Assembly: GCA_000004985.1 (NCBI GenBank)
Contig: GG738856.1
Length of the DNA: 64,000 nucleotides
Source of the DNA: Naegleria gruberi
Lineage: Eukaryota
Strand: one strand, 5' to 3'
Position 1 is the stretch's first letter; every line of letters begins with the position of its first letter. A program made the translations under genes and the position numbers. Below, one piece after another: positions 12,758 through 47,200 of this stretch. Below the pieces are notes generated by a model. It made no database searches and was not told the origin of the DNA. It was given only the letters and a program-made list of their open reading frames with translations.

Positions 12758-13828
12758 TTATTCTTCTTCACCATCATCAACAACATTACTACTACTAGCT
12801 CCGTTGTTATTATTACTATTACTATAGGCTTGTGTTTTTTGTACGAGTTGGTAAAACATGTTCAAATTGAGAGCCATGATGGATTGATTTCTCTTCGATT
12901 CATCTTCTCCTTCATCAGTAATAATCCTTGACTTTAGCTGGCCATCCTTCTTATCTAATTCCAAACTCACTTTTCCTTCCTTCACTAGAAAAGAAAAGTA
13001 GAAAATGTTTTCAATAGTGTGACAGAATGATGTTGGATCAACTACAATATCGGGCAGTGAAAGCTGTTGTTCATTTCCCTTTCGTTTCTTTAAATTACTT
13101 TTCATTGTCTTGAAAAGTTTTCCTACAGCCCTAGTGGTAGCATCCTCTTTAGATTGCTCATTAAATTCCTCTGCTTGTTTTTCTTCTGTTACTTCATCTC
13201 TTGTTCTCTTTGTACGTTCCTTCTTCTTTCTTTCCTTTCTTTCAGTTGACAAAGGTCCATGCATAAATGTCACTGTTGGTGTTCGTTTAAAGATGTGTGT
13301 AACACTACTTCCAACACTATTCCAATCGATATCATAGGTAGCATCCTCCGAATCATCACGACTTGATCTTGTTCCTCCTCGTTGTTTTCCAAACTTTTCA
13401 TCCAATTTGATCAAGAAATCTGTTGGATCCCATTCTTTTCCTAGTGTAATTGCTTTCAATTGTTGAATACTATGTTTAGATAATTGTTCAAAAAGTGCTG
13501 ATTCCAAGGCTCCTTCTCTAGCGTGTACAATGTTCTTTTCCATTGCTTTCATTTTGCCAAACATGTGAATGATTTCCTTATCACCAGGCTTTGTCAGTTT
13601 TTCAATATTCTTGTCAGCCTCGTTGACAGAGGCTATGATTTTGGCTCTCAACTCTCGTCTAAAAGCATCTGTTTTTTTAGTATCATCATCAACTTCTTCC
13701 CCTTCCACCTCCGAAGAATGATCATCTTGTTGTGATTCCTCCTCTTCTTGTTGCTCTTCTTCCTCTTCACTTTCTTCCTCCTCCGAAGAATGTTCTTCAA
13801 CAACTTGTTTCCTCTTACTTTTTTGCAT
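12758..13828 (-). CDS. NSE4: Nse4 / NSMCE4 (SMC5-SMC6 complex kleisin subunit)
   Basis: C-terminal Nse4 domain DPTSFCHTIENIFYFSFLVKEGKVSLELDKKDGQ...RNQSIMALNLNMFYQLV matches the NSMCE4 motif SFSQTVENIFHVSFIIRDG...QGIIALSYRDWEEIV. Acidic N-terminal tail. Confidence 0.7.
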   Translation of the reverse strand: MQKSKRKQVVEEHSSEEEESEEEEEQQEEEESQQDDHSSEVEGEEVDDDTKKTDAFRRELRAKIIASVNEADKNIEKLTKPGDKEIIHMFGKMKAMEKNIVHAREGALESALFEQLSKHSIQQLKAITLGKEWDPTDFLIKLDEKFGKQRGGTRSSRDDSEDATYDIDWNSVGSSVTHIFKRTPTVTFMHGPLSTERKERKKKERTKRTRDEVTEEKQAEEFNEQSKEDATTRAVGKLFKTMKSNLKKRKGNEQQLSLPDIVVDPTSFCHTIENIFYFSFLVKEGKVSLELDKKDGQLKSRIITDEGEDESKRNQSIMALNLNMFYQLVQKTQAYSNSNNNNGASSSNVVDDGEEE

Positions 13829-21457: not shown

Positions 21458-24400
21458 ATGCAGACATTACCTAATACCCAATACAAAACATGTCAGAGAG
21501 CATGTTTAGTCATGTTTATAATGCTATTCATATTATCTGCATGTATTGTCGAATGCTTTCTAACAGTAAACATTACTTATTCGATTTCCACACTTGTTGG
21601 AAATGATGATAATAGCAAAACAATGGACGGATTGCCAGGTGTTGGCACTTTTGTAGATGGACCTACTGGATTATTCTGGCAAAATGGAATCTTGTTCTAT
21701 GCAGGTAAGTTTCTTGTTGCATGTTGTGTGAAAAATTAAATTGAAATCGAATAGAAAGAAAACACATTAGAAAGTTGGAGAATGGAACAGTAACTACACT
21801 GGCAAGTGGTTTGTCTACACCAAATGGATTATTTGCTCTTAATAACACTATTTACTTTGCCGAAACTTCAGCTAATAGAATTAAGAGAATCAACAGTGAT
21901 TTGACAATTGACATTGTGAGTGCAAACAATACTTCAGGAGGATATAATGGTGATGGCATGCTTTTTAACGCAACATTCTTTGATCAACCAGTCAGTTTAT
22001 GTATTGGTAGTGAAAATATAATTTACATTACTGATTCGAATAATTACAGAATTAGAAAGGTAGATACAGATGGAAAGGTTAAAACAATTGTTGGTGCAGG
22101 ACTGAATGGTTTTAATGGTGATGGTCTCGGTGTTGCCACATACATAACGTAAGTTTTCACATGCACTTTTCATTGTTAACTTTCGAATAGTTGGGCAACT
22201 TCTATTAAATACTGGACGAATGGCTTGAAATCACTATTATACTTTGTACAGTTGAATGAAGGAACCATCAGAACACTAGATCTGAGCACTAACTTGATTA
22301 CAACCATTGCTGGAATTAGGGCAGCTGGAACTTTTGATGGAGATGGAAAATCAGCTTTACAAACTTCATTCTTTCGAATGACTGATGTTACAATATCAAA
22401 AAAGAATGGAAATATTTATGTTACTGATAAGAGCAATCAAAGGATTCGTAAAATTAGCAGTTCTACCAATTTGGTTTCGACAATTGCAGGAAATGGATCC
22501 ATTGGATTTGTTGACTCAATGTCAAATGCCATCAATGCTTCATTGTTTAATCCAATGTATTTAGTTTTGACTGATAATGATGAAATAATCTTCTCAGAGT
22601 TTGGAAATAATAGAATTAGAAAATTAACTCCAACCTGTCCAGAAGGTTACATGTTAGATCTTTACAATGACACTTGTAAAATGTCTTGTTATGGAAAGGC
22701 GTATAATGATCCCAATGTTTGTAGTTCAAGAGGCATTTGTGGTTCTCCTGATAATTGTATTTGCTCTGGTGATTATTTTGGACTGGAATGTGGATCTCAA
22801 TGTGATGCTTTTTCACTGCCAACTGTCAGGTCTGGATCTAAATGTTTGCCATTTTGTTACTCATTGATGGGAAAGGTAGATTTGATATTATCAAGAGCTA
22901 AAGCTATGGTCAATTCAAATGTTACTCTACATGCGAGTATCAATGATAATTGCCTTTCAGAAGTCAAGCAATTTTTGAATATTTCTTACATGATTACAAA
23001 ACCAGATAATAGTACAGACACAATTAGTACCAACGATATGATGATCATCTTGAGTATGAATCAAATAGGCGTCTATACTGCTTCGGTTAAAATCGAATTG
23101 AATTCAACCATCATTTTCATTTCGAATAACTCAATTTCAGTAACTTGTAAAACAAAGGAAGATTATCTTTCAGGTGACTTGACCAAGATTCCAGTTGATG
23201 AACTAATTGATTTAGCTAACTCCCCAGATACTTATCAACAAATTGGAAACTTGACTGTTCAGTCAATTATGAAATCACTTGCTTCATCACTTTCTACTCA
23301 AATTAACCAGCAATTAGATTTACCTTCTCTTGCCAAGTTGACCAATGCGTTAGTTACTGTTTCTACAAAAAAAACATATATTTCAGAGGATGTTATTGTT
23401 GACTTGAATAATGCAATGTATAATGTTTCATTCTCAGTTGACAAGTTTAGTTCTAATTCGTCTAATTTCCAAGTTTTAGAGAGAATTGTGACCTCAATAG
23501 TTGAAGGTTTCACCAATTGTTATTCAACATCAAACCAAACATCACCTTCAACTGTCAACAATTTGCTCAATCGAGTTGTTTCTATGGTTTCCAAAACATC
23601 CAACAAGTCAGACGATGAATTTACAACAAAATCATCAGAATTTACAATTAATGTGAAAAGAAACATTTTAACTCAATTTTTCAATTCCACACACGTCAAC
23701 TTGTACTCACCAAAGAATCTAAGAGATTCCACTATTTCAGTTGCAACCATTTCATTCACAAATCCTCTCAAAATGGTCAACTCATCAAAGGATGCAGAAA
23801 ATATTTTAACATCAATTCCAATTACAGAGCAACTCTTCAATCAGTCGAATGTAAATATTAGTTTCAGTATTTCACCAATTGTTGAAATTCACTATCTCAA
23901 AAATGGTCAAGTAATCAAGCTGGTCAACCTTGCCGATCCAATTATCTTCCAATTTATCACTCAAAATATTTCAACACTTAACATGACTAACTACAAGGTG
24001 AAATGTATGTATCTACATGAGGAAACAAACAAATGGTTGTCAGATGGCTGTCAATCTTCATTTGATTCAATGTCATCAGTTGTGACCTGCTCTTGCAATC
24101 ACACGACTAAATTTTCAAGTTTCGTAATGAGAGAAACTAATCTCACCTTATACTCTGAACATCAATTAGAAACTGATATTTCCTTAGCAGTTTCTGGAAT
24201 AACAGTCTCGTCAATATTCATCTTATGGATTATATTGATTATTATTGGCTTAATCTTTACAAGAAATACGAATCCAAGAAAGTCAAGATGGATTATTCCT
24301 TATCTTTGCCTTACTTCACTCTTAATTGACCTCAGTTTCTCAGATATTGTTTCGAATGCCCTCTTCCTCTCCAAGGAAATCAAATCTTCCGATATTATCA

Positions 24401-25533
24401 GATCAGTTTCTGTTATAGTGACATCAGTTTTCTACATTCTGGCCATTTTCAATTATCTCATTCTCCATTTGAGATATATCCTATTCAGATACACATACGA
24501 AATTATGTTTTCTATTGCAGTCAAGAATGAACAGCAAAAGATTGGTAAATGGATCAAAATTGTAAATAGCAAAGTGGCAGTTTTTGTGGTCAACTTGATT
24601 GGAGCTGTTGTCATTGTGATTTACTTTGTAATTTTCACTGCTTTGGTTAATACTGGATATATTCAAAAAGAATACTCAAAGATAATGTCAGCATCTTTCT
24701 TTGTGGTGGTTTCTTTAATTTATTTAATACTTTTAATGCTTGCCATATTTGATTTCTATATGGAAAATAGACATGTCAGTAAGGAGGAGAAATCGACAAG
24801 TGACAAGAAGAAGATTAGCTTATTTTTGGATATCTACAAGTTTATATTTGTGAATGATGTGTTGGTATTCAGAAAGGAGTTGATTTTTTCATTCATTTCG
24901 TATTTATTCTTTGTTTTGAACTTTGCTTTGGGTTTCTCCTCATTGGATAATCCGACTGTGACTTCATTTGCTGAGGCATCCTATGCATTTGGTGTTGTAT
25001 ACGAGTTCTTTAACATTCTGGCGTTTGGAGGTTTCGTATTCCTTGTGAATTTTTGCTCAATTAATTGGAAACGTAGAAACTATTCTAATCAAGATGATGA
25101 GAATGAAAATAGAGAACTAGATATTGTACTTTCCAATCCACAACTTTTGAAAATATTTGAAGAATATTGCATGAGAGAATTTTCTTTGGAAAATATTTTG
25201 ATTTTCAAGAAACTTGAATCTTTACAAAAAAGTGAACTTTCACCAATTGACAACGAGTCACTTTTTGAAGAAATGAAAAAGGATTACTTTATTAATGGAG
25301 CAGAATTTGAAGTCAACCTTTCCTCCTCCATGAAAAAGCAATTTATTCAACTTTGTTCCGATCTGAAACATGTAGAAAGGACTCAAGTGGATGAAATATT
25401 GGAACGTTTGAGGGATGACATTTATATGAACTTGAGTGATACATTTTCTAGATTTATTTTCACCAACGAATATGCATCTATTAATGAGTGTATAGAATTG
25501 AAAGAAAAAACAGGCCAGTCCTTTACAAAATAA
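21458..25533 (+). CDS. Large multidomain receptor: signal peptide, NHL repeats, Cys-rich EGF-like module, S/T/N-rich stalk, GAIN/GPS motif, 7 TM helices, C-terminal RGS domain. At least 3 exons with introns at about 21707..21766 and about 22149..22249.
   Basis: NHL repeats (IYITDSNNYRIRKV, IYVTDKSNQRIRKI, IIFSEFGNNRIRKL). EGF-like Cys cluster CSSRGICGSPDNCICSGDYFGLECGSQC. GPS motif VVTCSCNHTTKFSSFVM immediately before 7 hydrophobic helices. RGS motif FEEYCMREFSLENILIFKKLE...DYFINGAEFEVNL. Confidence 0.7.
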
Positions 25534-26526: not shown

Positions 26527-26939
26527 TACAAAATATTAATACTAATTATATCATCGAATTTAGAACATAGTTTTTCGAAAAAGAAAGTCACCAAGCTCTT
26601 AGAAATGCTTAAAGATGACAATAATTTGATATGCTATCAAATGTGGAGACTTATTNGAAAAGAGTGTTGGTGCTAACCCAGAAAAGTTGAAAGGTTTGGT
26701 TTTTTCTCTGAGAGAATACAAATTGGACTGATTTCTCCTCTTTACTCTACCACAGGATTTCATATTCTAACAAACGATGAATAAACAACTGATTTTTAAG
26801 CTTTTTGATGGGCATTTTACAATTAATCTTATAGGCAAATCATAAAATCACAGCATTTATCTCACTTTATTAAGCAAAAATTCCAAAATTTCAAAATTGT
26901 GAATTTTCTTCTAGTTGTAAAAAATTGAGTCGTCTTTGC

Positions 26940-27356
26940 TTATTTACGCTTGTAAACATCAACTCTCTTATTGTGTTTTCTATTCTTTCTATTCTTTCTG
27001 TGTTTTCTACCATGTTTTCTATTCTTTCTATGCTTCTTTCCATAAGTGTCGATTCTTCTCTTCTTATTGAATCTTCTCTTCTTTCCATAGACGTCAATCT
27101 TCTTTCTGATAATTCTCTTCTTACCATGTCTCTTCAAACCTCTTCTCTTTCTTCCGTAGGTATCCAAATATTTGTGAACTTTCTTATTGTTTCTTCTCTT
27201 CTTGTGGGAAACCTTCTTGAGTCTTCTTTGTTTGTTGTTCTTCTTGGCAATGTACAAGGACATGGTTTGTTCCTCTGCATTAACGTCAGAAGTCATGGAA
27301 AGAGCAAGAACTGCCAAAGTTAAGGCAATCAATAGAATTGAAATGAATCTTTTCAT
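26940..27356 (-). CDS. Secreted polybasic (K/R-rich) peptide precursor, copy 1. Signal peptide, then a short acidic pro-region, then (D-x-YGKKRR)-type repeats with many dibasic sites.
   Basis: MKRFISILLIALTLAVLALSMTSDVNA signal peptide. Then AEEQ... followed by KKRRNNKKVHKYLDTYGRKRRGLKRHGKKRIIRKKIDVYGKKRRFNKKRRIDTYGKKHRKNRKHGRKHRKNRK. TATAAATAC motif about 90 bp upstream (27441-27452, minus strand). Confidence 0.55.
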   Translation of the reverse strand: MKRFISILLIALTLAVLALSMTSDVNAEEQTMSLYIAKKNNKQRRLKKVSHKKRRNNKKVHKYLDTYGRKRRGLKRHGKKRIIRKKIDVYGKKRRFNKKRRIDTYGKKHRKNRKHGRKHRKNRKNRKHNKRVDVYKRK

Positions 27357-27781
27357 TTTGTTTTTTTTTGTTGAGTGAGTTTGAAACAATGTTTAGTTTG
27401 AATTTATTGGTTTCGAATAGTGAATAGTAATTTAGTTCTTGTATTTATAAGGAGAGAAATCAGACGAGTTTGTTTACTTGTTTGGATTCTGTTGGATATT
27501 TAGATAGGTATTTATATGGATTTTGTTCAGAGTTTCGAATAAAAACAGAACATTCGCATAGAACTTCTCAACTCTGGACAATCCACCTTGTAATTTTCAA
27601 GATTGTTTCCAATGACCATTAAGAAGAATCCTCTTAATAACAATTTAAGAAAATAATAAGGCTGTTACCCACAAGTATTCTTTTTGTGGTTTTACAAAAG
27701 TTGTAAAGTTCAAGTTCCAGATTGAGGCTAAAAATATTCCAAAAAAAAAAAGTTCCAACTGCCAAACCGCACATAACAATC

Positions 27782-28726
27782 ATGTCCTCATCATCACTTA
27801 GATTACACTGCTTTAGAAACGGAGACTGGGAAAGAAGAGATGGTTTCATTCTCCTCATTGAAAAATCATTAAATAATTCATTGATGGAAAATTTGAAGAA
27901 TAGAGCAAGTAGGATATTGTTTCCCTTCTTGTTTGAGAATGTAAATAACGAGTCTGAATGTTTATCTGTTGAATACTTGCCGAAAATTAGAATATTTTCA
28001 AAATATGGATCCGAAATTAAGAAAGAGGAAGAATTGAGAGATGATGATGTCTTGTTCCTTTCATGTTTTAATGAGGATTTTATAAATTCTATTGCCAAGA
28101 TGAATTATCAAATCAAACAGCTAAGTGGATTGGAAAGCAATTTGAAGAGACAAACTACTCCTTGTTGTGGGGAAACTCAAACTGGAATGATTACTTCTTG
28201 TTTGGGATTCTCTGTTACAATTAATAGTTTATCAACAAAGAAGGAAGTTACATTGGATAATTTGAATGGTAGTTTGACCATTGATGAGATTAAGAGGATG
28301 TTATTAAATAGTGGCACCAACAAGGAACGATTATTGGGAAAGAGTGATTATCCACTCAAATTCACTGAAGATTTCATTCTAGTTCACAAAGGGAAGGAAC
28401 TTAAAGATAATGATGAAGTTGAGAAGCTCTTCTCTCAAAATCCTAATCCAACCAAACTAACTGTGTTCATGGTGTTGAAGAAACCTGTGTATTATGTAAA
28501 GATTGTCATGGAAGGAGGAAGAATGGTAATTATTGACAATGATTCCATTAATTTCACATCTCATGTTTCTGATTTAAAATATTATATGGAAAAACGTTTG
28601 AGAATGAATCTCAATGCCAGCAATAAGGAATTGATATTAATGTGGAATCAAGAAAAGATGATGGGCTCTGAATGTTTAGGAAATGCCTTCCCTTCAAAGT
28701 CAACTCTAAGCTTGACATTTATTTAA
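27782..28726 (+). CDS. Hypothetical protein, possibly with two ubiquitin-like folds; lies in the part of duplication copy A that has no counterpart in copy B (copy B has an N-gap here)
   Basis: ATG ORF of 315 aa. No confident family assignment. Confidence 0.4.
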   Translation: MSSSSLRLHCFRNGDWERRDGFILLIEKSLNNSLMENLKNRASRILFPFLFENVNNESECLSVEYLPKIRIFSKYGSEIKKEEELRDDDVLFLSCFNEDFINSIAKMNYQIKQLSGLESNLKRQTTPCCGETQTGMITSCLGFSVTINSLSTKKEVTLDNLNGSLTIDEIKRMLLNSGTNKERLLGKSDYPLKFTEDFILVHKGKELKDNDEVEKLFSQNPNPTKLTVFMVLKKPVYYVKIVMEGGRMVIIDNDSINFTSHVSDLKYYMEKRLRMNLNASNKELILMWNQEKMMGSECLGNAFPSKSTLSLTFI

Positions 28727-29632
28727 ACAACATTCTCATATTTACTTTCTAATAATGTGTATCGTACACTCCCTACAAATGCTGTATCAGAAAATCTTCT
28801 ACCTTCCTGTAACTCCTTTCCAGCAAAAATAAATCGAAATTTATCCCATGATTCTCCCAATTTACTTTCCAATAATTGTTTCATTTCCTTAATAAAATAA
28901 TAATAGCCATATTGATATGTGTAAACAGCTGTAGAGTTATCGTGGTTCCAAACTTGTGTGAAAGGAGATGCTTAAAAATAAGTCAAGTCCATCAACAAGA
29001 TCAATTTTGAAATTTCCTTCTCCAGTTCTCTTTTCAATATTCTGGGCTTGATTTGATTAATGTGTATTCTTATAGAATTCAACTTGGTAATTTTACTCAA
29101 ATCTAAATCCTTAATTCTCTTGCACTTTACAACTGAAATACTCTCCAAACATTTCAAATTTTCACAAATTTTCTATTCACTCTGTTTCAAAAAGTACCAT
29201 CCATCGAGATTTAACTTTCTCACATTAGAAAATCAACTTGACAAATCGACCTGATAATTACCAAAGTACAAGCATAATTTAGAGAGAATGATCGTTCTCT
29301 GATTTGATGTGTGACACCAACCTTCTAATAATATTTTTTAAAATAATTGGTTGGATTCAACATCTTGCATTGTAATTTCTTCTGATTTCAATTTTCCACA
29401 TTTTCTGACCCATTCATTTACCTTTTCAATATTCAAAAATCCATAAATAATGGAACAGCAGGTATGAAAGTTCCCCAGTCTAAATGATGGTTAATGATTC
29501 AGCCTATTCAGGTGACATTCCGTTTCCGCAAGCATCCACACATGGGACCAGAAAAACAAGTAATCAAATTATCTCCAAGATAACAAAGTAAAAATTTACG
29601 ATAATTTTCACTCTTGTTGATTCGGCCTTGGT

Positions 29633-30130
29633 TTAATTGTCATTTCTCAATTCATTTGATGCGTATTCCAGTGCCTCACCCTCTTGTTTGACAGCTTCCA
29701 GAACAATTTCATGATCATTTCTCAATTCATTCGATGCATATTGAAGTGTTGAACCATCTTGTTTGACAGCTTCCAAAACAACTTCCCTATCATTCTTCAA
29801 TTCATCAGATGCAAAGGTAAGCAAACAGCCGAGATTTCTAACTACTTCCTTGATGACTTGTTTGTCATTCTTGAATTCATCGGCTACACTCTCGAAATTG
29901 TGAGGGAATTTTTTGAAGTAATCCACTACGAAGGATCTATCGTGCATGAATTCGATTGGAAGAAATCTATCGTCCACTCTATCACGATTATTCATCCATT
30001 TGATCAAATCTTTTTGATAATTGTGGAACTTGTTTTGTAGATTTGAATAACATGTTCCAATTCCGAAATCTATTAACTCAATTATGACAGAACAAGTTTT
30101 GCAGTCATCATTGTGTTGTTGTTGGGACAT
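29633..30130 (-). CDS. DUF4116-repeat protein, short copy (about 2 repeats). Paralog of 35601..36531.
   Basis: N-terminus MSQQQHNDDCKTCSVIIELIDFGIGTCYSNL... is identical in style to copy B, followed by ASDELKNDREVVLEAVKQDGSTLQYASNELRNDHEIVLEAVKQEGEALEYASNELRND repeats. Sequence diverges from copy B 3' of 29633, giving an early stop. Confidence 0.55.
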   Translation of the reverse strand: MSQQQHNDDCKTCSVIIELIDFGIGTCYSNLQNKFHNYQKDLIKWMNNRDRVDDRFLPIEFMHDRSFVVDYFKKFPHNFESVADEFKNDKQVIKEVVRNLGCLLTFASDELKNDREVVLEAVKQDGSTLQYASNELRNDHEIVLEAVKQEGEALEYASNELRNDN

Positions 30131-30455
30131 TTTTTCGGATCTTAATTCCAAGTTTCGGCAGGATTACAAAACGAATGAGACCAATGGCCCAGTTCAATAA
30201 CAGGTTTGACAATTACATCCACCTTTTCTTGAATCCACCAGACAAGGGAATAATAAGTTAAATATTTAAAGTTGGTGCAATTCGAGATGCATTTCTCTAC
30301 ATCAAAAAATCCAACAGATCTGAAACACTACTCTCCAGCAACCATTTGATAATTCTCCAATCACTCAGGACTCATCTAAAGGAAGTTAATACCGATCAGG
30401 TTCCTTTAAATTTTCAAAGTTCAAACTAAACAATTCGAAACTTCACATAAAAAAA

Positions 30456-31253
30456 ATGCCTCATCACAATCCAAATAAATACATTAAATTCAACTCTCTA
30501 GCAGCCTGCATTCAGGACGACTATTATCCCATTGACGAAAGGGATGCCTATGAAGGATATGAGGACATTGATAGATTTCAGGTTTTTAAAAGAATAATTC
30601 CTTTCGCCTTGATTCTCTATTCAGAGGAGGAAAAGAAATTTATATTCCAGACAAATTTGAAAGATGTGTGTCCACAGAATACATCTCCAAAGTATTTACT
30701 TGTTCAACTTCAAGATTATTGCGATTTTAAACTTGCATTGATCAAGTTAGGTCAATTGGGGTTTTTTATGGATCGATCAAAGTTTATTATTTTGAAATAT
30801 GTTTCTGAGAGAAGTGAAATACGTAAGAAATTTTATTCTTACCGCTCTTCTTTGCTATCTATTCAGGAATATTCCAATTCTGGCATTGAGTTATATATTT
30901 CTGATTGTGAGAAAATTTCAAAAGTGAAAATTGACTTGTGTCAAGAAGATATTCTGAAAACAGAGATCAAATATAGCTATTGGAAAGGATCATCCTTAAT
31001 TCCTTAGCCATTTCTCATTTGACCACTCTGTTTCATTTTCATCTCAAATTATTAGAAATGGCCAAAGAGAGAATATTTATTTAGATTTTGATATCTCTCT
31101 GTTTCATTACGAAAATGCTACTCAACATATTGAATTTATGTGTGAACACCATTTTGAAACCAAATATAGTTTACTAGTCAATCAGGAAAACAATGAAATA
31201 TTTATAATGAGCTTTCTTCATAATTTAGAATTTCACAAAATGGAATTTCACCA
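30456..31253 (+). pseudogene. Copy A of a lineage-specific gene (paralog of 36782..38263). It carries a 14-bp deletion near 31000 that frameshifts the ORF, and is then cut by the N-gap at 31254.
   Basis: Copy A ...ccttagccatttc... versus copy B ...ccttatagacattgggcgagccatttc.... The protein is 183 aa here versus 493 aa intact. A few other nonsynonymous differences. Confidence 0.5.
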
Positions 31254-31541
31254 NNNNNNNNNNNNNNNNNNNNNNNNNNNNNNNNNNNNNNNNNNNNNNN
31301 NNNTTTTCTCTGAGAGAATACAAATTGGACTGATTTCTCCTCTTTACTCTACCACAGGATTTCATATTCTAACGAACGATGAATAAACAACTGATTTTTA
31401 AGCTTTTTGATGGGCATTTTACAATTAATCTTATAGGCAAATCATAAAATCACAGCATTTATCTCACTTTATTAAGCAAAAATTCCAAAATTTCAAAATT
31501 GTGAATTTTCTTCTAGTTGTAAAAAATTGAGTCGTCTTTGC

Positions 31542-31958
31542 TTATTTACGCTTGTAAACATCAACTCTCTTATTGTGTTTTCTATTCTTTCTATTCTTTC
31601 TGTGTTTTCTACCATGTTTTCTATTCTTTCTATGCTTCTTTCCATAAGTGTCGATTCTTCTCTTCTTATTGAATCTTCTCTTCTTTCCATAGACGTCAAT
31701 CTTCTTTCTGATAATTCTCTTCTTACCATGTCTCTTCAAACCTCTTCTCTTTCTTCCGTAGGTATCCAAATATTTGTGAACTTTCTTATTGTTTCTTCTC
31801 TTCTTGTGGGAAACCTTCTTGAGTCTTCTTTGTTTGTTGTTCTTCTTGGCAATGTACAAGGACATGGTTTGTTCCTCTGCATTAACGTCAGAAGTCATGG
31901 AAAGAGCAAGAACTGCCAAAGTTAAGGCAATCAATAGAATTGAAATGAATCTTTTCAT
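31542..31958 (-). CDS. Secreted polybasic peptide precursor, copy 2 (identical to 26940..27356)
   Basis: 31493..31965 is base-for-base identical to 26891..27365 (identical track ORFs). The N-gap starts 7 bp upstream of the ATG. Confidence 0.55.
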   Translation of the reverse strand: MKRFISILLIALTLAVLALSMTSDVNAEEQTMSLYIAKKNNKQRRLKKVSHKKRRNNKKVHKYLDTYGRKRRGLKRHGKKRIIRKKIDVYGKKRRFNKKRRIDTYGKKHRKNRKHGRKHRKNRKNRKHNKRVDVYKRK

Positions 31959-31965
31959 TTTGTTT

Positions 31966-34900
31966 NNNNNNNNNNNNNNNNNNNNNNNNNNNNNNNNNNN
32001 NNNNNNNNNNNNNNNNNNNNNNNNNNNNNNNNNNNNNNNNNNNNNNNNNNNNNNNNNNNNNNNNNNNNNNNNNNNNNNNNNNNNNNNNNNNNNNNNNNNN
32101 NNNNNNNNNNNNNNNNNNNNNNNNNNNNNNNNNNNNNNNNNNNNNNNNNNNNNNNNNNNNNNNNNNNNNNNNNNNNNNNNNNNNNNNNNNNNNNNNNNNN
32201 NNNNNNNNNNNNNNNNNNNNNNNNNNNNNNNNNNNNNNNNNNNNNNNNNNNNNNNNNNNNNNNNNNNNNNNNNNNNNNNNNNNNNNNNNNNNNNNNNNNN
32301 NNNNNNNNNNNNNNNNNNNNNNNNNNNNNNNNNNNNNNNNNNNNNNNNNNNNNNNNNNNNNNNNNNNNNNNNNNNNNNNNNNNNNNNNNNNNNNNNNNNN
32401 NNNNNNNNNNNNNNNNNNNNNNNNNNNNNNNNNNNNNNNNNNNNNNNNNNNNNNNNNNNNNNNNNNNNNNNNNNNNNNNNNNNNNNNNNNNNNNNNNNNN
32501 NNNNNNNNNNNNNNNNNNNNNNNNNNNNNNNNNNNNNNNNNNNNNNNNNNNNNNNNNNNNNNNNNNNNNNNNNNNNNNNNNNNNNNNNNNNNNNNNNNNN
32601 NNNNNNNNNNNNNNNNNNNNNNNNNNNNNNNNNNNNNNNNNNNNNNNNNNNNNNNNNNNNNNNNNNNNNNNNNNNNNNNNNNNNNNNNNNNNNNNNNNNN
32701 NNNNNNNNNNNNNNNNNNNNNNNNNNNNNNNNNNNNNNNNNNNNNNNNNNNNNNNNNNNNNNNNNNNNNNNNNNNNNNNNNNNNNNNNNNNNNNNNNNNN
32801 NNNNNNNNNNNNNNNNNNNNNNNNNNNNNNNNNNNNNNNNNNNNNNNNNNNNNNNNNNNNNNNNNNNNNNNNNNNNNNNNNNNNNNNNNNNNNNNNNNNN
32901 NNNNNNNNNNNNNNNNNNNNNNNNNNNNNNNNNNNNNNNNNNNNNNNNNNNNNNNNNNNNNNNNNNNNNNNNNNNNNNNNNNNNNNNNNNNNNNNNNNNN
33001 NNNNNNNNNNNNNNNNNNNNNNNNNNNNNNNNNNNNNNNNNNNNNNNNNNNNNNNNNNNNNNNNNNNNNNNNNNNNNNNNNNNNNNNNNNNNNNNNNNNN
33101 NNNNNNNNNNNNNNNNNNNNNNNNNNNNNNNNNNNNNNNNNNNNNNNNNNNNNNNNNNNNNNNNNNNNNNNNNNNNNNNNNNNNNNNNNNNNNNNNNNNN
33201 NNNNNNNNNNNNNNNNNNNNNNNNNNNNNNNNNNNNNNNNNNNNNNNNNNNNNNNNNNNNNNNNNNNNNNNNNNNNNNNNNNNNNNNNNNNNNNNNNNNN
33301 NNNNNNNNNNNNNNNNNNNNNNNNNNNNNNNNNNNNNNNNNNNNNNNNNNNNNNNNNNNNNNNNNNNNNNNNNNNNNNNNNNNNNNNNNNNNNNNNNNNN
33401 NNNNNNNNNNNNNNNNNNNNNNNNNNNNNNNNNNNNNNNNNNNNNNNNNNNNNNNNNNNNNNNNNNNNNNNNNNNNNNNNNNNNNNNNNNNNNNNNNNNN
33501 NNNNNNNNNNNNNNNNNNNNNNNNNNNNNNNNNNNNNNNNNNNNNNNNNNNNNNNNNNNNNNNNNNNNNNNNNNNNNNNNNNNNNNNNNNNNNNNNNNNN
33601 NNNNNNNNNNNNNNNNNNNNNNNNNNNNNNNNNNNNNNNNNNNNNNNNNNNNNNNNNNNNNNNNNNNNNNNNNNNNNNNNNNNNNNNNNNNNNNNNNNNN
33701 NNNNNNNNNNNNNNNNNNNNNNNNNNNNNNNNNNNNNNNNNNNNNNNNNNNNNNNNNNNNNNNNNNNNNNNNNNNNNNNNNNNNNNNNNNNNNNNNNNNN
33801 NNNNNNNNNNNNNNNNNNNNNNNNNNNNNNNNNNNNNNNNNNNNNNNNNNNNNNNNNNNNNNNNNNNNNNNNNNNNNNNNNNNNNNNNNNNNNNNNNNNN
33901 NNNNNNNNNNNNNNNNNNNNNNNNNNNNNNNNNNNNNNNNNNNNNNNNNNNNNNNNNNNNNNNNNNNNNNNNNNNNNNNNNNNNNNNNNNNNNNNNNNNN
34001 NNNNNNNNNNNNNNNNNNNNNNNNNNNNNNNNNNNNNNNNNNNNNNNNNNNNNNNNNNNNNNNNNNNNNNNNNNNNNNNNNNNNNNNNNNNNNNNNNNNN
34101 NNNNNNNNNNNNNNNNNNNNNNNNNNNNNNNNNNNNNNNNNNNNNNNNNNNNNNNNNNNNNNNNNNNNNNNNNNNNNNNNNNNNNNNNNNNNNNNNNNNN
34201 NNNNNNNNNNNNNNNNNNNNNNNNNNNNNNNNNNNNNNNNNNNNNNNNNNNNNNNNNNNNNNNNNNNNNNNNNNNNNNNNNNNNNNNNNNNNNNNNNNNN
34301 NNNNNNNNNNNNNNNNNNNNNNNNNNNNNNNNNNNNNNNNNNNNNNNNNNNNNNNNNNNNNNNNNNNNNNNNNNNNNNNNNNNNNNNNNNNNNNNNNNNN
34401 NNNNNNNNNNNNNNNNNNNNNNNNNNNNNNNNNNNNNNNNNNNNNNNNNNNNNNNNNNNNNNNNNNNNNNNNNNNNNNNNNNNNNNNNNNNNNNNNNNNN
34501 NNNNNNNNNNNNNNNNNNNNNNNNNNNNNNNNNNNNNNNNNNNNNNNNNNNNNNNNNNNNNNNNNNNNNNNNNNNNNNNNNNNNNNNNNNNNNNNNNNNN
34601 NNNNNNNNNNNNNNNNNNNNNNNNNNNNNNNNNNNNNNNNNNNNNNNNNNNNNNNNNNNNNNNNNNNNNNNNNNNNNNNNNNNNNNNNNNNNNNNNNNNN
34701 NNNNNNNNNNNNNNNNNNNNNNNNNNNNNNNNNNNNNNNNNNNNNNNNNNNNNNNNNNNNNNNNNNNNNNNNNNNNNNNNNNNNNNNNNNNNNNNNNNNN
34801 NNNNNNNNNNNNNNNNNNNNNNNNNNNNNNNNNNNNNNNNNNNNNNNNNNNNNNNNNNNNNNNNNNNNNNNNNNNNNNNNNNNNNNNNNNNNNNNNNNNN

Positions 34901-35600
34901 NNNNNNNNNNNNNNNNNNNNNNNNNNNNNNNNNNNNNNNNNNNNNNNNNNNNNNNNNNNNNNNNNNNNNNNNNNNNNNNNNNNNNNNNNNNNNNNNNNNN
35001 NNNNNNNNNNNNNNNNNNNNNNNNNNNNNNNNNNNNNNNNNNNNNNNNNNNNNNNNNNNNNNNNNNNNNNNNNNNNNNNNNNNNNNNNNNNNNNNNNNNN
35101 NNNNNNNNNNNNNNNNNNNNNNNNNNNNNNNNNNNNNNNNNNNNNNNNNNNNNNNNNNNNNNNNNNNNNNNNNNNNNNNNNNNNNNNNNNNNNNNNNNNN
35201 NNNNNNNNNNNNNNNNNNNNNNNNNNNNNNNNNNNNNNNNNNNNNNNNNNNNNNNNNNNNNNNNNNNNNNNNNNNNNNNNNNNNNNNNNNNNNNNNNNNN
35301 NNNNNNNNNNNNNNNNNNNNNNNNNNNNNNNNNNNNNNNNNNNNNNNNNNNNNNNNNNNNNNNNNNNNNNNNNNNNNNNNNNNNNNNNNNNNNNNNNNNN
35401 NNNNNNNNNNNNNNNNNNNNNNNNNNNNNNNNNNNNNNNNNNNNNNNNNNNNNNNNNNNNNNNNNNNNNNNNNNNNNNNNNNNNNNNNNNNNNNNNNNNN
35501 NNNNNNNNNNNNNNNNNNNNNNNNNNNNNNNNNNNNNNNNNNNNNNNNNNNNNNNNNNNNNNNNNNNNNNNNNNNNNNNNNNNNNNNNNNNNNNNNNNNN
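31966..35600. other. Assembly gap (run of N). Shorter gaps at 31254..31303 and 63783..63832, and single n at 26656 and 63890.
   Basis: Literal n characters. Confidence 1.
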
Positions 35601-36230
35601 ATTCATTTGATGCATATACAAGTGCTCTACCATCTTCTCTAACCACTTCCAGCACAACTTGTTTATCATTCTTCCATTCATCAGATGCATGTTCATGTGC
35701 TCTACCATCTTGTTTAACTGCTTCCAGTACTATTTCCATATCATTCTTCAATTCATCTGATGCGTATTCAAGTGCTCGACCATTTTTTTTAACTGCTTCC
35801 AGAACAATTTCATGGTCATTTCTCAATTCATCAGATGCATATCGAAGTGCTGAACCATCTTGTCTAACTACTTCCAGAACAATTTGTTTGTCATTCTTCC
35901 ATTCATCAGATGCATAACCAACTGCCCAACTATCTTGTTTACTAGCCTCCAATACAAATTCCATATCACTCTTCAATTCGTCGGATGCATATCGAAGTGC
36001 ACTACCATTTTTTTTTACAGCCGTTAAAACAATTTGTTTGTCATTTCTCAATTCATTTGATGCGTATTCAAGTGCCTCACCCTCTTGTTTGACAGCTTCC
36101 AGAACAATTTCATGATCATTTCTCAATTCATTTGATGCATATTCAAGTGTTGAACCATCTTGTTTGACAGCTTCCAAAACAACTTCCCTATCATTCTTCA
36201 ATTCATCAGATGCAAAGGTAAGCAAACAGC
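35601..36230. repeat. Tandem 75-bp coding repeat (DUF4116 half-repeats), 8 or more units, truncated by the gap
   Basis: Recurrent ...tcatcagatgcata...cttccag(a/t)aca... units with period 75 nt. Confidence 0.7.
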
Positions 36231-36531
36231 CGAGATTTCTAACTACTTCCTTGATGACTTGTTTGTCATTCTTGAATGCATCGGCTACACTCTCGAAATT
36301 GTGAGAGAATTTTTTGAAGTAATCCATCACGAAGGATCTATCGTGCATGAATTCGATTGGAAGAAATCGATCATCCACCCTATCACGATTATCCATCCAT
36401 TTGATCAAATCTGTTTGATAATTGTGGAACTTGTTTAGTAGATTTGAATAACATGTTCCAATTCCGAAATCTATTAACTCAATAATGACAGAACAAGTTT
36501 TGCAGTCATCATTGTGTTGTTGTTGGGACAT
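35601..36531 (-). CDS. DUF4116-repeat protein, long copy. N-terminus complete; the 3' part (8 or more 25-aa half-repeats) runs into the N-gap, so it is partial.
   Basis: Tandem 75-bp units encoding YASDELKND(x)EIVLEAVKQDGRALE. ATG at 36531. Confidence 0.6.
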
Positions 36532-36781
36532 TTTTTCGGATCTTAATTCCAAGTTTCGGCAGGATTACAAAACGAATGAGACCAACGGTCCAGTTCATTA
36601 ACAGGTTTGACTTGTTTGACCATTACATCCACCTTTTCTTGAATCCACCAGACAAGGGAATAAGTTAAATACAAATATTTAAAGTTGGTGCAATTCGAGA
36701 TCTAAAGGAAGTTAATACCGATCAGGTTCCTTTAAATTTTCAAAGTTCAAACTAAACAATTCGAAACTTCACATAAAAAAA

Positions 36782-38263
36782 ATGCCTCATCACAATCCAA
36801 ATAAATACATTAAATTCAACTCTCTAGCAGCCTGCATTCAGGACGACTATTATCCCATTGACGAAAGGGATGCCTATGAAGGATATGAGGACATTGATAG
36901 ATTTCAGGTTTTTAAAAGAATAATTCCTTTCGCCTTGATTCTCTATTCAGAGGAGGAAAAGAAATTTATATTCCAGACAAATTTGAAAGATGTGTGTCCA
37001 CAGAATACATCTCCAAAGTATTTACTTGTTCAACTTCAAGATTATTGCGATTTTAAACTTGCATTGATCAAGTTAGGTCAATTGGGGTTTTTTATGGATC
37101 GATCAAAGTTTATTATTTTGAAATATGTTTCTGAGAGAAGTGGAATATGTAAGAAATTTTATTCTTACCGCTCTTCTTTGCTATCTATTCAGGAATATTC
37201 CAATTCTGGTATTGAGTTATATATTTCTGATTGTGAGAAAATTTCAAAATTGAAAATTGACTTGTGTCAAGAAGATATTCTGAAAACAGAGATCAAATAC
37301 AGCTATTGTATAGGATCATCCTTAATTCCTTATAGACATTGGGCGAGCCATTTCTCATTTGACCACTCTGTTTCATTTTCATCTCAAATTATTAGAAATG
37401 GCCAAAGAGAGAATATTTATTTAGACTTTGATATCTCTCTGTTTCATTACGAAAATGCTACTCAACATATTGAATTTATGTGTGAACACCATTTTGAAAC
37501 CAAATATAGTTTACTAGTCAATCAGGAAAACAATGAAATATTTATAATGAGCTTTCTTCATAATTTCGAATTTCACAAAATGGAATTTTCACCAGATGAT
37601 AATTCATATCAAATGAATCCAGTTCATTTTGAAAGCAATGAGGATTGTAACTTTCGAGATATGTATGCAACCTCGTGTGCCATAACCAATAGCAAGTATT
37701 TGGTTATTATTCATGTGAATAGATGTAACATGAAGAGTGAAACATATCAGGAATTCTTCACTTCTGATGAGGTGAGGTGGATGCTTGTGGATTTGAACTC
37801 ATACAGTGTGAAAAGAGTTTATCCAATTGTTTATAATATTGAAAAGTTAAAGATGCTACAAATTTCCTCTGATGGTTTCCAAAGAGTTGAAAAAAGACCA
37901 CGGACAACCCAACTTTATTTGCAAGATGGTGATTTGAATGGTGGACGTACCGATTCTTCCTTAATTAATCGTACCTCTATTTCTCAAATCCGAATCAATG
38001 ATGGATTTGAACCAGAATTTTCACACCTATTTGCATTCAGACCATTTCAACATAATCCTGAACTATTTCAAGTCCACCTATCAGTTTCCTTAAATACACT
38101 TCATTCCTCATATAGCGACACTAAGATTAATAAGAAAAAGTATGGACACTTCTTTAGATTTTATTTCAAGTTTTCTAATGAAGCCACTTGCATCTTGGAA
38201 AGGTTATTGAAATTTGTAAGAGAAGGTCACTTTTCAGATGTCTCAATATCAATCAAGGAGTGA
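36782..38263 (+). CDS. Lineage-specific hypothetical protein (493 aa), intact copy of the 30456..31253 pseudogene. Divergently arranged with the DUF4116 gene.
   Basis: Continuous ATG ORF. 5' region about 98-99% identical to copy A. No recognisable domain. Confidence 0.5.
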   Translation: MPHHNPNKYIKFNSLAACIQDDYYPIDERDAYEGYEDIDRFQVFKRIIPFALILYSEEEKKFIFQTNLKDVCPQNTSPKYLLVQLQDYCDFKLALIKLGQLGFFMDRSKFIILKYVSERSGICKKFYSYRSSLLSIQEYSNSGIELYISDCEKISKLKIDLCQEDILKTEIKYSYCIGSSLIPYRHWASHFSFDHSVSFSSQIIRNGQRENIYLDFDISLFHYENATQHIEFMCEHHFETKYSLLVNQENNEIFIMSFLHNFEFHKMEFSPDDNSYQMNPVHFESNEDCNFRDMYATSCAITNSKYLVIIHVNRCNMKSETYQEFFTSDEVRWMLVDLNSYSVKRVYPIVYNIEKLKMLQISSDGFQRVEKRPRTTQLYLQDGDLNGGRTDSSLINRTSISQIRINDGFEPEFSHLFAFRPFQHNPELFQVHLSVSLNTLHSSYSDTKINKKKYGHFFRFYFKFSNEATCILERLLKFVREGHFSDVSISIKE

Positions 38264-42706: not shown

Positions 42707-43243
42707 TTAGAATTCTTGAGATGAAGCAGCAGAAGTTTCTTCTGATGACTTCTTACTACTCTTTTTATCACTACCTTTCTTGGCTGTTTGACCAGTTGGC
42801 AACAAGATGCTGTGAATGTTTGGAAGGACACCTCCGGAAGCAATAATAACTTCGGACAAGAGCTTATTCAATTCTTCATCGTTTCTGATAGCCAATTGAA
42901 TGTGTCTTGGGACAATTCTACCCTTCTTGTTATCACGAGCAGCGTTACCTGCAAGTTCGAGAATTTCAGCAGCCAAGTATTCCAAAACAGCAGCCATGTA
43001 AACTGGAGCACCAGCACCAATTCTTTCAGCATATCTACCTTCCTTCAAATATCTAGCCAAACGACCGACTGGGAATTGGAGACCGGCTCTGTTTGATCTA
43101 GATTGTGGCTTGGACTTTGGTCCCTTATGGGCTGGACGAGTACCAATCTTTTTCTTATTCTTCTTGTCCTTTTTGGTAGAAGTCTTGGTTGTGGTTTCTT
43201 CTTGTTCTTCTTCTGGGATGTTCTTTTCTGGTGAGGCTGGCAT
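42707..43243 (-). CDS. Histone H2A variant, H2A.X-like, with a C-terminal SQEF and an unusually long (about 50 aa) Lys-rich N-terminal extension
   Basis: Core [78 protein letters not shown]-terminal ...SSQEF. No canonical histone 3' stem-loop seen downstream. Confidence 0.85.
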
Positions 43244-44248: not shown

Positions 44249-47200
44249 ATGGATAAACTGAACAATAACAACAATACAACGGATAGTAATTATGATACTA
44301 TTAATGCCATTACTAAAATTTTACCTTTATATCCTCAATTCAAAACATTCATCAAACAATATTTTAAGGATAGACCATCACTCATAGAATCTATTGTTAA
44401 TAACCATCAAGAAGACAAAATTGATCAAAAACAACTCATAACATTGTTGGAAATTACTTTACGATTATTAATTTTTGCACCATCTGATTTTTGTAAAATG
44501 TGGAATTGGTCACCATTCTTCTCGCTTTTAAAACACAAAAATAAGGATATCAAATCACTAACATCAAAATGTGTTTCAATTATATTGAAATTAGATGACC
44601 AATTTTTCAATTCAAAGATTGATAATTTAAAGACATATGTTTTGGAAGAAATTGAAAGTGAAGAATTAGTCCATTTGGAAAATACTCTTTCTTTCTATGA
44701 TGATACAGAGACTTCAAATATGGAAACAACAACAGAAGAAACAAGAGATAAACTCATCATTTCACACAAATCTGATTCTATGGTAAATGTTTGTGGTGTT
44801 TGGTTACACAAAAATCTTCGTGAAATTAAATCTTCCCAACAAAATATTTCAGCTGATAAGACTAAATTGATTTTCACAAAGACATCACTCGAAAATATGC
44901 GTTCATTGGCATTGGGAGTTGCACAAGAAAATCCTATTATTTTGGAAGGTATTATTGGTTCTGGTAAGACAGCCTACGTAGAAGAATTAGCAAGAATTAC
45001 AGGAAACACAGATCTTATCAAAGTCAATTTGGATGAATCTTTTGATAGTAAGGATTTATTAGGTACATATGTTTGTACTGATGTTCCAGGTGAATTCAGA
45101 TGGCAACCAGGTGCATTGACAAAGGCTGTCATGGAAGGAAGATGGATTCTTATTGAAGATCTTGATTTGGCTCCATTTGATATCATTTCATCGATTATTC
45201 CACTCGTAGAGTCAGGTAATCTTTTCCTTCCATCTAGAGATGAAATTATTCCAGCTTCAACTGGTTTCCAATTGTTTGCAACTCAAAGTCTTGTAGAATC
45301 ACTCAATGGAACAACAACAAGACAACGAGTTCTTCCAATGTCTAACTTGTGGACTAAGGTTAGGGTAAACAAATTACCATCTAAGGAGATTGAACATATT
45401 CTGAAAGTTAAATTCGAATCAATTCAACAATTAATTCCAAAGTTTATTGAAACATATGACGCTTTGAGAAGTGGTCATATTTCGGATGATTCTGAAAAAT
45501 CCGAGAAACAATCATCTGAATCAACACAGTTAAAGAGCTTTGGAAGACTTTTCTCATTCAGAGATTTACTCAAATGGTGCGAGAGAGTTCAACGATTTTA
45601 TGGACAAAAGATTCAAAAGAATCAAAACTATGTTTTAAGTCAAATTAAGAGAGACATTTTCCATGAAGCTATTGATGTATTTTGTGGTATGATTGCCAAA
45701 CATGACATTTATGATTCTGTTGTTGGAACACTTGCTCTTGTGTGGGAAATTTATAATTATGAAGAATATTTAAAGACTTATAAACCACAATTACATGAAG
45801 AAAAGGGAGTGATAACAGTCGGTAGAATTTCCCTAGAAAGAGATGAGAAGAATCTTGGAGAACTTCTTAACAAAAATAGTAACTTTGCTCACACCAAGCA
45901 AAGTTTAAGAATGATGGAAAGAGTTGGTGCCTGTATAAAGATGAACGAACCAATTTTATTGAACGGTGAAACTGGTGTTGGTAAAACTACTGCTGTTCAA
46001 TATTTGGCCAACTTGATGGGTAAAAAACTCCTTGTACATAACTTGAATCAACAAACAGACTCTGCAGATTTTATTGGTGGTTATAAACCAGTTGATTTGA
46101 AAATACTTGCAGCTTCTGTAAAGAGCAATTTTGAACAATTATTTTCAGTTACTTTCCCTTCAAAGGAAAACGAAGTAACATTGAAAAAAGTCAGAGATTT
46201 ATACACAAAGAAGAGCTGGGCTCAATTCATCATGATGTTGAATAAGATAATTGATCTTGCTGATCAAAAACTTTCAAAAGTTGATGAAGTAGTTGATGAA
46301 AAGTTAGAAGAAGTAGATTCAAAGAAGAGAAAGAAGACTCAAGGTTCTTCTTCTGGAACAAAGAAGCAAAAGACTTCTGATAAGACATCAACACTCAAAC
46401 AATATTGGACTAAATTCAAAGAAAGTGTTGACAAATTTAATCAACAACAAATACTTGTACAAAATAGCTTTGCTTTCTCTTTCGTAGAAGGTACCTTGGT
46501 TAAGGCTCTTAAGGAAGGTCATTGGATCTTACTCGACGAAATTAACTTGGCCTCTACAGAAACACTTGAAAGATTGAGCTCTTTATTAGAAGGTGAAGAA
46601 GGAACCTTATTCATTACTGAAAAAGGTGATACTGAACCAATTAAGAGACATCCAAACTTTAGAATTTTTGCTTGTATGAATCCTCCAACTGATATTGGTA
46701 AAAAGAATTTGCCACCTGGTTTGAGAAATAGATTTTCCGAGTTTTATGTTCACGAATTAACTGACAAGGACGACTTGAAGATTGTTGTTTCTAGATATTT
46801 GTCAACTGTACCACATCCACCAGTTGATGATATTGTTAATTTTTATTTGGACGTAAAGAAAAAGTCAGAAGCTGAACTTTCTGATGGTGCTTCCCAAAGA
46901 CCTCATTACAGTTTACGTACCTTGACAAGAAGTTTGGACTATGCCGTTTTTGTTATGAAGGACTATGGTATGGAAAGATCTCTCTATGAAGGTTTCTCTA
47001 TGGGTTTCTTAACCTTATTGAGTTCTGCTTGTTCATCCACAGTTGAAAAGATGATTAGAACTTGTTTCTTCAAACAAAAGAATGTTGATAATTCTCTTAA
47101 GCAAGCTCCAAGTCAACCAGCTAGTGGTGATTTTGTTTTGTTTAAACACTTTTGGTTGCCACAAGGTCAATTCGCACCAGAGCAACCAGCTGATTTTATT

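Follow-up and report, generated by a model that had tools for sequence, protein, structure and literature searches.

A putative secreted, hyper-cationic protein family with conserved Asp-x-Tyr islands, encoded by an overlooked gene of Naegleria gruberi

The gene described here lies within 64,000 nucleotides of Naegleria gruberi NEG-M sequence (GenBank assembly GCA_000004985.1, contig GG738856.1; this whole stretch is referred to as the window). At positions 26940..27356 the minus strand contains an uninterrupted open reading frame (ORF) that translates to 138 amino acids followed by a TAA stop codon. This is a genuine intronless gene that was overlooked by the reference annotation, and it very probably belongs to a real family of polycationic proteins that enter the secretory pathway. 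The overall explanation that best accounts for the observations is that the product acts as a secreted or endolysosomal polycationic effector, to which we give a probability of about 45%; that the effector is directed at prey or works by binding polyanions is proposed tentatively. A preliminary description of the window, made from the letters alone, had given the coordinates of the ORF exactly, had characterised the protein correctly for the most part and had counted 139 residues in the product, which translation corrected to 138 plus the stop codon. The gene and its parts are listed below, with the evidence for each in brackets.

26940..27356, minus strand: complete intronless coding sequence (CDS), copy 1 (translation, homologs, identical protein on metagenome contig L001, ratio of non-synonymous to synonymous substitution rates)
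27276..27356, minus strand: predicted signal peptide, residues 1–27 (hydropathy, n/h/c anatomy, residues at −3/−1 across the family)
27246..27275, minus strand: predicted mature N-terminus, residues 28–37, EEQTMSLYIA (family alignments)
26943..27245, minus strand: polybasic body, predicted to be disordered, residues 38–138 (composition, AlphaFold2)
27141..27167, minus strand: motif 1, LDTYGRKRR, residues 64–72 (sequence and alignment)
27072..27098, minus strand: motif 2, IDVYGKKRR, residues 87–95 (sequence and alignment)
27027..27053, minus strand: motif 3, IDTYGKKHR, residues 102–110 (sequence and alignment)
26943..26963, minus strand: C-terminal motif, VDVYKRK followed by the stop codon, residues 132–138 (alignments)

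The coding status of the ORF was established by comparison with its relatives. A phmmer search gave four N. gruberi 'predicted proteins' with 59–69% identity to the target (E = 7e-41 to 1e-18), three of which covered 100% of the query, and one metagenome protein with 47% identity. For the window gene and its paralog on contig L004 the ratio of non-synonymous to synonymous substitution rates (dN/dS) was 0.23 with a dS of 0.62 (Nei-Gojobori); against the more distant L002 it was 0.41–0.44. A spurious ORF is ruled out by these paralog matches and dN/dS values. Conservation among the paralogs extended to the start and stop, the signal peptide, a (S/T)LSx(Y/F)I patch, the hydrophobic-D-x-Y islands and a C-terminal (V/F)DxYK(K/R)K. 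Purifying selection, together with the conservation of the signal peptide, islands and C-terminus, therefore identifies 26940..27356 as a real protein-coding gene. The target protein had no entry in a collection of 15 billion sequences, from which it follows that the gene is unannotated in the N. gruberi NEG-M reference.

Exactly the same protein is encoded on an independent metagenome contig of the European Nucleotide Archive (ENA), L001 (3680 bp, ERZ929261), which is 99.2% identical to positions 26644–28956 of the window. The CDS is identical in the two sequences and the 340 bp upstream are near-identical, with one 2-bp indel, while several differences fall in the 3' flank. The window has a GC content of about 33% and contains long intronless ORFs. 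The G+C content at third codon positions of the target gene is 0.42 compared to 0.23–0.33 in ten neighbouring ORFs (AAG 75%, AGA 96%), and this shift to C/G-ending codons gives weak, indirect support for good expression. Read on the plus strand, 26940..27356 gives a mirror image rich in Ser, Leu and Phe that is interrupted by stop codons. An antisense ORF on that strand at 26925..27323 (132 amino acids, TTG start, S/L/F-rich) was considered and rejected as merely the complement of the AAG/AGA-rich CDS.

The annotated homologs of the target are NAEGRDRAFT_71365 (XP_002673524), NAEGRDRAFT_71069, NAEGRDRAFT_68008 and NAEGRDRAFT_68479, together with the N-terminal 130 amino acids of NAEGRDRAFT_50395. 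The family group, D2VQW0/D2VQ94/D2VGK2/D2VHX6, is homologous over the full length, including the signal peptide, the islands and the C-terminus. When all 1.84 billion cluster representatives were searched with hmmsearch, just the proteins found by phmmer were recovered, plus P0006. The latter is NAEGRDRAFT_50395 (XP_002675247), in which residues 1 to ~130 form a family member with six D-x-Y motifs and the remainder consists of a Q/N-rich region and a NOT2/NOT3/NOT5 C-terminal domain (NOT2_3_5_C); the gene model is probably a chimera joining two genes. Environmental relatives of the family are P0005, P0007 and P0008. The long C-terminal tail of P0005 and P0007 (24 residues, QISFNNF...) is a gene-calling artefact in which a TAG was read through; on L002 the ORF stops at this TAG (535–537), right after VDFYKKK. 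Between L002 and L005 there were 14 non-synonymous changes and 1 synonymous change, an excess that was not significant (Fisher p = 0.32). Contig L005 starts with a remnant of an Illumina adapter, CGACGCTCTTCCGATCT.

The number of D-x-Y motifs ranges from 2 to 6 across the members. A longer His-rich HRKNRKHGRKHRKNRKNRKH tail sets the window protein apart, which has 7 histidines compared to 0–3 in the other short members. Profile searches of Pfam, NCBIfam and the PDB gave no relative of the target protein. In a profile scan of JGI metagenomes none of 498 pattern matches was confirmed, and the sole match in these metagenomes to a degenerate DNA pattern of the signal peptide (L003) was an unrelated bacterial ORF. 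The gene identifiers of the paralogs are not mentioned in the searchable literature. As far as current protein databases show, the family appears to be restricted to N. gruberi and close relatives; its absence from other Naegleria proteomes is not conclusive because annotation easily misses small ORFs.

Inspection of the N-terminus suggests that the pre-protein carries a classical cleavable signal peptide, with the cut predicted after Val-Asn-Ala27, in agreement with the preliminary description. The n-region is MKR, the h-region is FISILLIALTLAVLALS and the c-region is MTSDVNA, so that the predicted cut falls between VNA and EE. The hydrophobic core of 17 residues is short for a membrane anchor. 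The full sequence begins with MKRFISILLIALTLAVLALSMTSDVNA up to the cut and continues with EEQTMSLYIA, after which come the 101 residues of the basic region. In all seven members carrying a signal peptide the residue at −3 is Val and that at −1 is only Ala, Gly or Cys. All of these residues are permitted, and the family-wide pattern thus points to a conserved signal-peptidase site. The cut is followed directly by EE, or by TN in P0001. The N-terminus is positive and acidic residues follow the core, a charge difference that orients the C-terminus to the lumen. In the family alignment the signal peptide was the segment of highest identity (mean 73%), compared to 51% for the basic body. The short acidic pro-segment that had been described after the signal peptide was reduced to just two Glu in residues 28–37, which are followed by the conserved patch, here in the form (S/T)LS(L/T)(Y/F)I. 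A di-lysine signal for retrieval to the endoplasmic reticulum (ER) was considered for the C-terminus and discarded; the sequence does not match KKXX or KXKXX and the tail is predicted to be lumenal.

The predicted mature protein (residues 28–138) contains 111 amino acids, with a mass of 14.05 kDa, an isoelectric point of 11.9 and a net charge of about +47. Its composition includes 31 Lys, 22 Arg, 7 His, 4 Asp, 2 Glu and 6 Tyr, with no Cys; Lys and Arg make up 48% of the residues, and the grand average of hydropathy (GRAVY) is −2.26. An earlier estimate of about 100 residues with more than 50% K/R is borne out by the last 100 residues, of which 52% are K or R. Every N. gruberi paralog keeps the D-x-Y of motif 1, which the distant P0005 and P0007 have lost, and the D-T-Y of motif 3 is invariant in a six-sequence alignment. 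Motif 3 reads IDTYR, with Arg in place of Gly, in P0001, P0003, P0004 and P0008. All full-length members finish in (V/F)DxYK(K/R)K. The repeats of the preliminary description are present as three copies of a 9-residue motif, (I/L)D(T/V)YG(K/R)K.R, and the C-terminal VDVYKRK; they do not form a regular tandem array, as their spacing is irregular at 23, 15 and 30 residues. At the DNA level the only repeats were a degenerate array with a 9-nt period (26977–27035) and imperfect copies of 15–34 nt.

Structure prediction using AlphaFold2 with the family alignment gave a mean predicted local distance difference test score (pLDDT) of 60 and a predicted template modelling score of 0.23. In the model a helix covers the signal peptide together with the first stretch of basic residues, and the pLDDT drops below 50 from about residue 65 onwards. 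This low confidence led us to read the mature protein as a disordered polycation, and the mature product is accordingly modelled as an intrinsically disordered chain punctuated by four conserved hydrophobic-Asp-x-Tyr islands.

As a secreted or endolysosomal effector, the protein would enter the ER and lose its signal peptide, after which it would reach either the cell exterior or the endolysosomal/food-vacuole route. At its destination it may bind polyanions through its charge, the likeliest targets for a bacterivorous amoeba being the envelopes or nucleic acids of bacterial prey. It could act intact or after trimming at basic sites, as a non-amphipathic cationic effector of the histatin or protamine type, and the D-x-Y islands would be the selected, specific elements, with a possible part in recognition or modification or as landmarks for cleavage. 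Naegleria makes antimicrobial naegleriapores from multi-peptide (polyprotein) precursors, and protamine, histatin and poly-lysine are antibacterial and non-amphipathic. Two features expected of a cationic host-defence peptide, a secretory signal peptide (by inspection) and a strongly cationic mature product, were found in the target, and in its family the pre-region is conserved and the mature region varies more, a pattern recalling host-defence peptide families.

Several observations weigh against this explanation. Most classes of host-defence peptide require an amphipathic surface, from which histatin- and protamine-like peptides are exempt, and no amphipathic or hydrophobic surface was found here, given the GRAVY value and a model that shows no structure of any confidence outside the signal peptide and a single basic helix. 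Being nearly devoid of hydrophobic content, the mature protein differs from most antimicrobial peptides that act on membranes. Action by charge alone leaves the strict conservation of the D-x-Y islands and of the C-terminus unexplained. The signal peptide, on which entry to the ER would depend, was assigned by inspection alone. A literature search gave no usable transcript, proteomic, secretome or localisation evidence for the family, and the genomic neighbourhood offers no functional clue.

The pattern of conservation along the protein is one to be expected of a multi-peptide precursor. The preliminary description had called the gene Kex2-site-rich and had proposed a precursor processed by kexin. 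Under such a scheme a convertase would cut after KR or RR, a carboxypeptidase would trim off the basic residues and short Tyr peptides, (V)HKYLDTYG, IDVYG, IDTYG and VDVY, would be freed as signals, pheromones or toxins, the K/R spacers being disposable. Precursors of thyrotropin-releasing hormone (TRH), of cnidarian neuropeptides and of fungal UstA and alpha-factor follow the same logic of short peptides and basic sites. The short non-basic islands are indeed conserved between paralogs whose basic spacers differ both in length and in sequence, members differ in motif number from 2 to 6, and cleavage in silico gives exactly the D-x-Y islands. However, when the mature sequence was shuffled 5000 times, the 13 KR/RR sites observed were no more than its composition yields (10.3 ± 2.1 in shuffles, p = 0.15); dibasic pairs of all kinds numbered 31 compared to 24.8 in shuffles (p = 0.015). 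A sequence with 48% K+R is bound to contain dibasic sites. If every KR/RR were cut, the resulting peptides would have only ~4–13 residues; with trimming, the fragments included NNKKVHKYLDTYG, IIRKKIDVYG and VDVY, and much of the protein was discarded. With basic spacers of 5–25 residues, the greater part of the protein would go to waste, which is not the case in known precursors. The irregular motif spacing and the lack of a regular DNA tandem unit also count against a precursor of this kind, as does motif 1, which has no dibasic site immediately upstream (HKY-LDTYG). With KR/RR not enriched and no homology to Kex2-processed precursors, the proposed kexin model lacks specific support; kexin processing of the target protein is possible, and a prepropeptide whose peptides are the functional product is unlikely. 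A variant of this scheme draws on the resemblance of Y-G-(K/R)(K/R)R to a classical Gly-dibasic amidation and cleavage site, where the Gly before the basic run could allow C-terminal amidation. Gly does not precede each basic site, since motif 3 has Arg at this position in four paralogs (IDTYR) and the invariant C-terminal motif, VDxYK(K/R)K, has none. Convertase cleavage with Gly-directed amidation, releasing (I/L/V)-D-(T/V)-Y(-NH2) tetra- or pentapeptides as secreted cell–cell signals, is regarded as highly improbable. If true, the amidated D-x-Y peptides could serve in density sensing, encystment, differentiation or mating, and prohormone-style peptidergic signalling would extend far beyond animals, fungi and green algae. 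In a 2009 domain survey with N. gruberi among its species, the P domain was inferred for the 'Excavata', Heterokonta and Opisthokonta groups alone (PMC2770060). The same paper colour-codes Discicristata as a separate clade and lists its species without group labels; in our reading N. gruberi belongs to its Discicristata, a group for which no P domain was inferred, and on that placement the survey would be an indirect hint against a convertase-processed precursor. Literature on a kexin, proprotein convertase, subtilisin or furin of Naegleria gave nothing beyond this indirect hint, and that on an amidating enzyme in Naegleria gave nothing informative.

The Tyr islands could alternatively be contact or cross-link points in a structural or adhesive extracellular polycation that binds acidic polysaccharides or surfaces, possibly in the cyst wall, the glycocalyx or substrate adhesion. 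A signal peptide joined to a disordered polycation in which Tyr is regularly kept beside Lys/Arg would suit such a role, and a lineage-specific family fits a lineage-specific extracellular structure. The Lys/Tyr-rich mussel foot proteins and silaffin-type polycations provide a loose analogy. Tyr amounts to only ~5%, however, and neither Pfam, NCBIfam nor the profile search gave any homology to cyst-wall or adhesive proteins. This role is considered improbable. If the N-terminus were no secretion signal, the K/R runs could instead serve for localisation and for RNA or DNA binding in a nucleolar protein or one that binds nucleic acids inside the cell, and the preliminary description had itself raised a nuclear localisation signal as a caveat. 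KKRR, RKRR and similar runs look identical to nuclear or nucleolar localisation signals, and it is reported that exogenous polycationic peptides reach the nucleolus of N. gruberi (bioRxiv 10.64898/2026.08.23.746575). Conservation within the family is highest in the first 27 residues, which show the full anatomy of a signal peptide with a conserved −3/−1 site and acidic residues at +1/+2. A nuclear protein would hardly account for this, and the conservation of the signal peptide disfavours a nucleolar protein, which we consider very unlikely.

Upstream and downstream of copy 1 the following elements were read from the sequence.

27441..27449, minus strand: TATA-like TATAAATAC, 85–93 nt upstream of the copy 1 ATG
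27508..27516, minus strand: second TATAAATAC, 152–160 nt upstream of the copy 1 ATG
26866..26871, minus strand: AATAAA hexamer, possible poly(A) signal, ~70 nt downstream of the stop

The TATAAATAC at 27441..27449 is also kept in L001. The leader upstream of copy 1 is A-rich and contains no ATG between this motif and the start codon. Paralogs L002 and L005 have CTCTATAAATTA at about −50. The TATAAATAC motif was considered as a conserved promoter element and rejected, as it is missing upstream of paralog L004.

A second CDS identical to 26940..27356, and encoding the same protein, is found at 31542..31958. The segments involved in the apparent duplication are as follows.

31304..31965, minus strand: 662-bp island containing copy 2 (CDS 31542..31958), with 1 mismatch to 26702..27363
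29637..31253, no strand assigned: segment B, the readable part of an apparent duplication of 4.6–6.3 kb, matching 36038..37594
36038..37594, no strand assigned: segment B', the counterpart of B beyond a gap of 3635 N, matching 29637..31253

The two identical copies reported in the preliminary description thus hold for the CDS, while the second depends on an island that lies between runs of N; the TATAAATAC promoter motif that was assigned to each copy occurs twice upstream of copy 1, and copy 2 has 7 readable bases upstream of its ATG before the 3635-N run. The N runs of the window are at 26656 (1), 31254–31303 (50), 31966–35600 (3635), 63783–63832 and 63891. Segments B and B' match at 95–97%, with 1–3% substitutions and several indels, and divergence is uneven, at 0.15% in the island versus 1–3% plus indels in segment B. 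A 14-bp indel truncates a 183-residue ORF at 30456–31007 relative to a 493-residue ORF at 36782–38263, which had no Pfam hit; the truncated ORF is either a paralog in decay or a null allele. Tandem repeats of ~75 bp encoding DUF4116 units occur at 35601–36214 and 29640–29813, with ~8 copies after the large gap versus ~2–3 in the first segment, and the ORF at 29633–30151 on the minus strand matches PF13475 (E = 2e-56). The difference in repeat number could have broken the assembly.

The evidence is evenly balanced between a real tandem duplication of ~4.6–6.3 kb with decay of one copy and an assembly artefact, in which copy 2 would be an unmerged haplotype fragment or a misplaced contig the size of a Sanger read that was scaffolded into a gap. 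The artefact is favoured by the island itself, with N runs on both sides and 1 of 662 bases differing from copy 1; at this sole site L001 agrees with copy 1. All readable sequence from 26702 to 31253 has a collinear counterpart beyond the gaps, and the uneven divergence suits alleles under patchy heterozygosity. Naegleria is described as for the most part a heterozygous diploid, with stretches in which heterozygosity was lost (PMC9928731), which would explain 0.15% in one place and 1–3% in another. An adjoining fault in the assembly points the same way. Compared with L001 (2224–3054), the window (26600–26722) lacks 703 bp at ~26644, 12 bp from the N at 26656, and this loss reflects either an assembly error or a true deletion in NEG-M. 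Against an artefact, the 14-bp indel and the differing DUF4116 repeat numbers fit an older, real duplication with one copy decaying, and an assembler would normally have collapsed a read of 99.85% identity with copy 1, unless mate pairs assigned it to another place. Whichever origin holds, copy 2 gives no independent information on the gene. The gaps, the probable false or unresolved duplication and the 703-bp loss make statements on copy number from this NEG-M stretch unsafe. The gene hit by the 703-bp loss is convergent with the target gene, encodes a 276-residue protein with a thioredoxin domain and is left out of frame.

Other genes in the window include a histone H2A gene at 42710–43243 (minus strand), 15 kb from the target, which is an exact match to EFC47077.1 and unusually long at 178 amino acids, and an NSE4 ORF at 12761–13828 that exactly matches N. 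gruberi EFC47067.1. The ORF at 22225–25533 on the plus strand encodes 1102 amino acids with an NHL repeat, a GPS (G protein-coupled receptor proteolysis site) motif and a C-terminal RGS domain, an architecture that by its sequence appears to be of the adhesion-G protein-coupled receptor-like/RGS kind in a heterolobosean. One uninterrupted ORF of 5449 amino acids spans 44249–60598 on the plus strand, and a strong positive GC and AT skew is seen near 58–60 kb.

If the proposed function as a polycationic effector holds, a free-living amoeba that serves as a model would possess a lineage-specific, previously unrecognised family of secreted proteins with extreme positive charge. The family would be a candidate for a role in the handling of bacterial prey or the building of extracellular structures in Naegleria, and a source of unusual non-amphipathic polycationic sequences. 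The gene also illustrates that the reference annotation overlooks small low-complexity genes, with one paralog buried in a chimeric model.

The closest relatives of the window protein are its N. gruberi paralogs, which resemble it in the signal peptide, the STLSxYI patch, the islands, the polybasic body and the C-terminal (V/F)DxYK(K/R)K. Among Kex2-type systems, the precursors available for comparison are alpha-factor, Candida Ece1/candidalysin, Ustilago Rep1 and the UstA-type precursors of ribosomally synthesised and post-translationally modified peptides. Fungal Kex2-processed precursors share with the target a signal peptide and short conserved motifs that are bracketed by dibasics and vary in number between paralogs. 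Unlike them, the target family has no homology in the profile search and no regular tandem unit, and its basic stretches make up about half of the protein where the fungal precursors have sites of 2 residues. No neighbours of the UstY/tyrosinase type were seen among the window ORFs. Pro-TRH and the cnidarian neuropeptide precursors likewise combine a signal peptide with short peptide-Gly-(K/R)(K/R)R units that recur along the chain; compared to these amidated hormone precursors, the Gly of the target is variable and its spacers are long polybasic tracts. The diatom silaffin precursor Sil1p resembles the target in its signal peptide, in the short acidic segment at its N-terminus and in Lys/Arg-rich repeats that end in basic cleavage motifs, and both proteins are polycations whose action is based on charge, which for the target is a proposal. 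Sil1p is not homologous to the target, which does not have the Ser/Lys-rich silaffin composition, and Naegleria has no silica biomineralisation. Histatins, protamine-like peptides and the C-terminal region of Hydra arminin are secreted by way of a signal peptide, as is predicted for the target, and like it they are very basic, rich in His/Lys/Arg/Tyr, disordered and free of Cys. In comparison with these the target is much longer (111 amino acids) and more charged, and its strictly conserved D-x-Y islands have no counterpart there. The family is new in sequence and fits the known general class of secreted cationic peptides and proteins.

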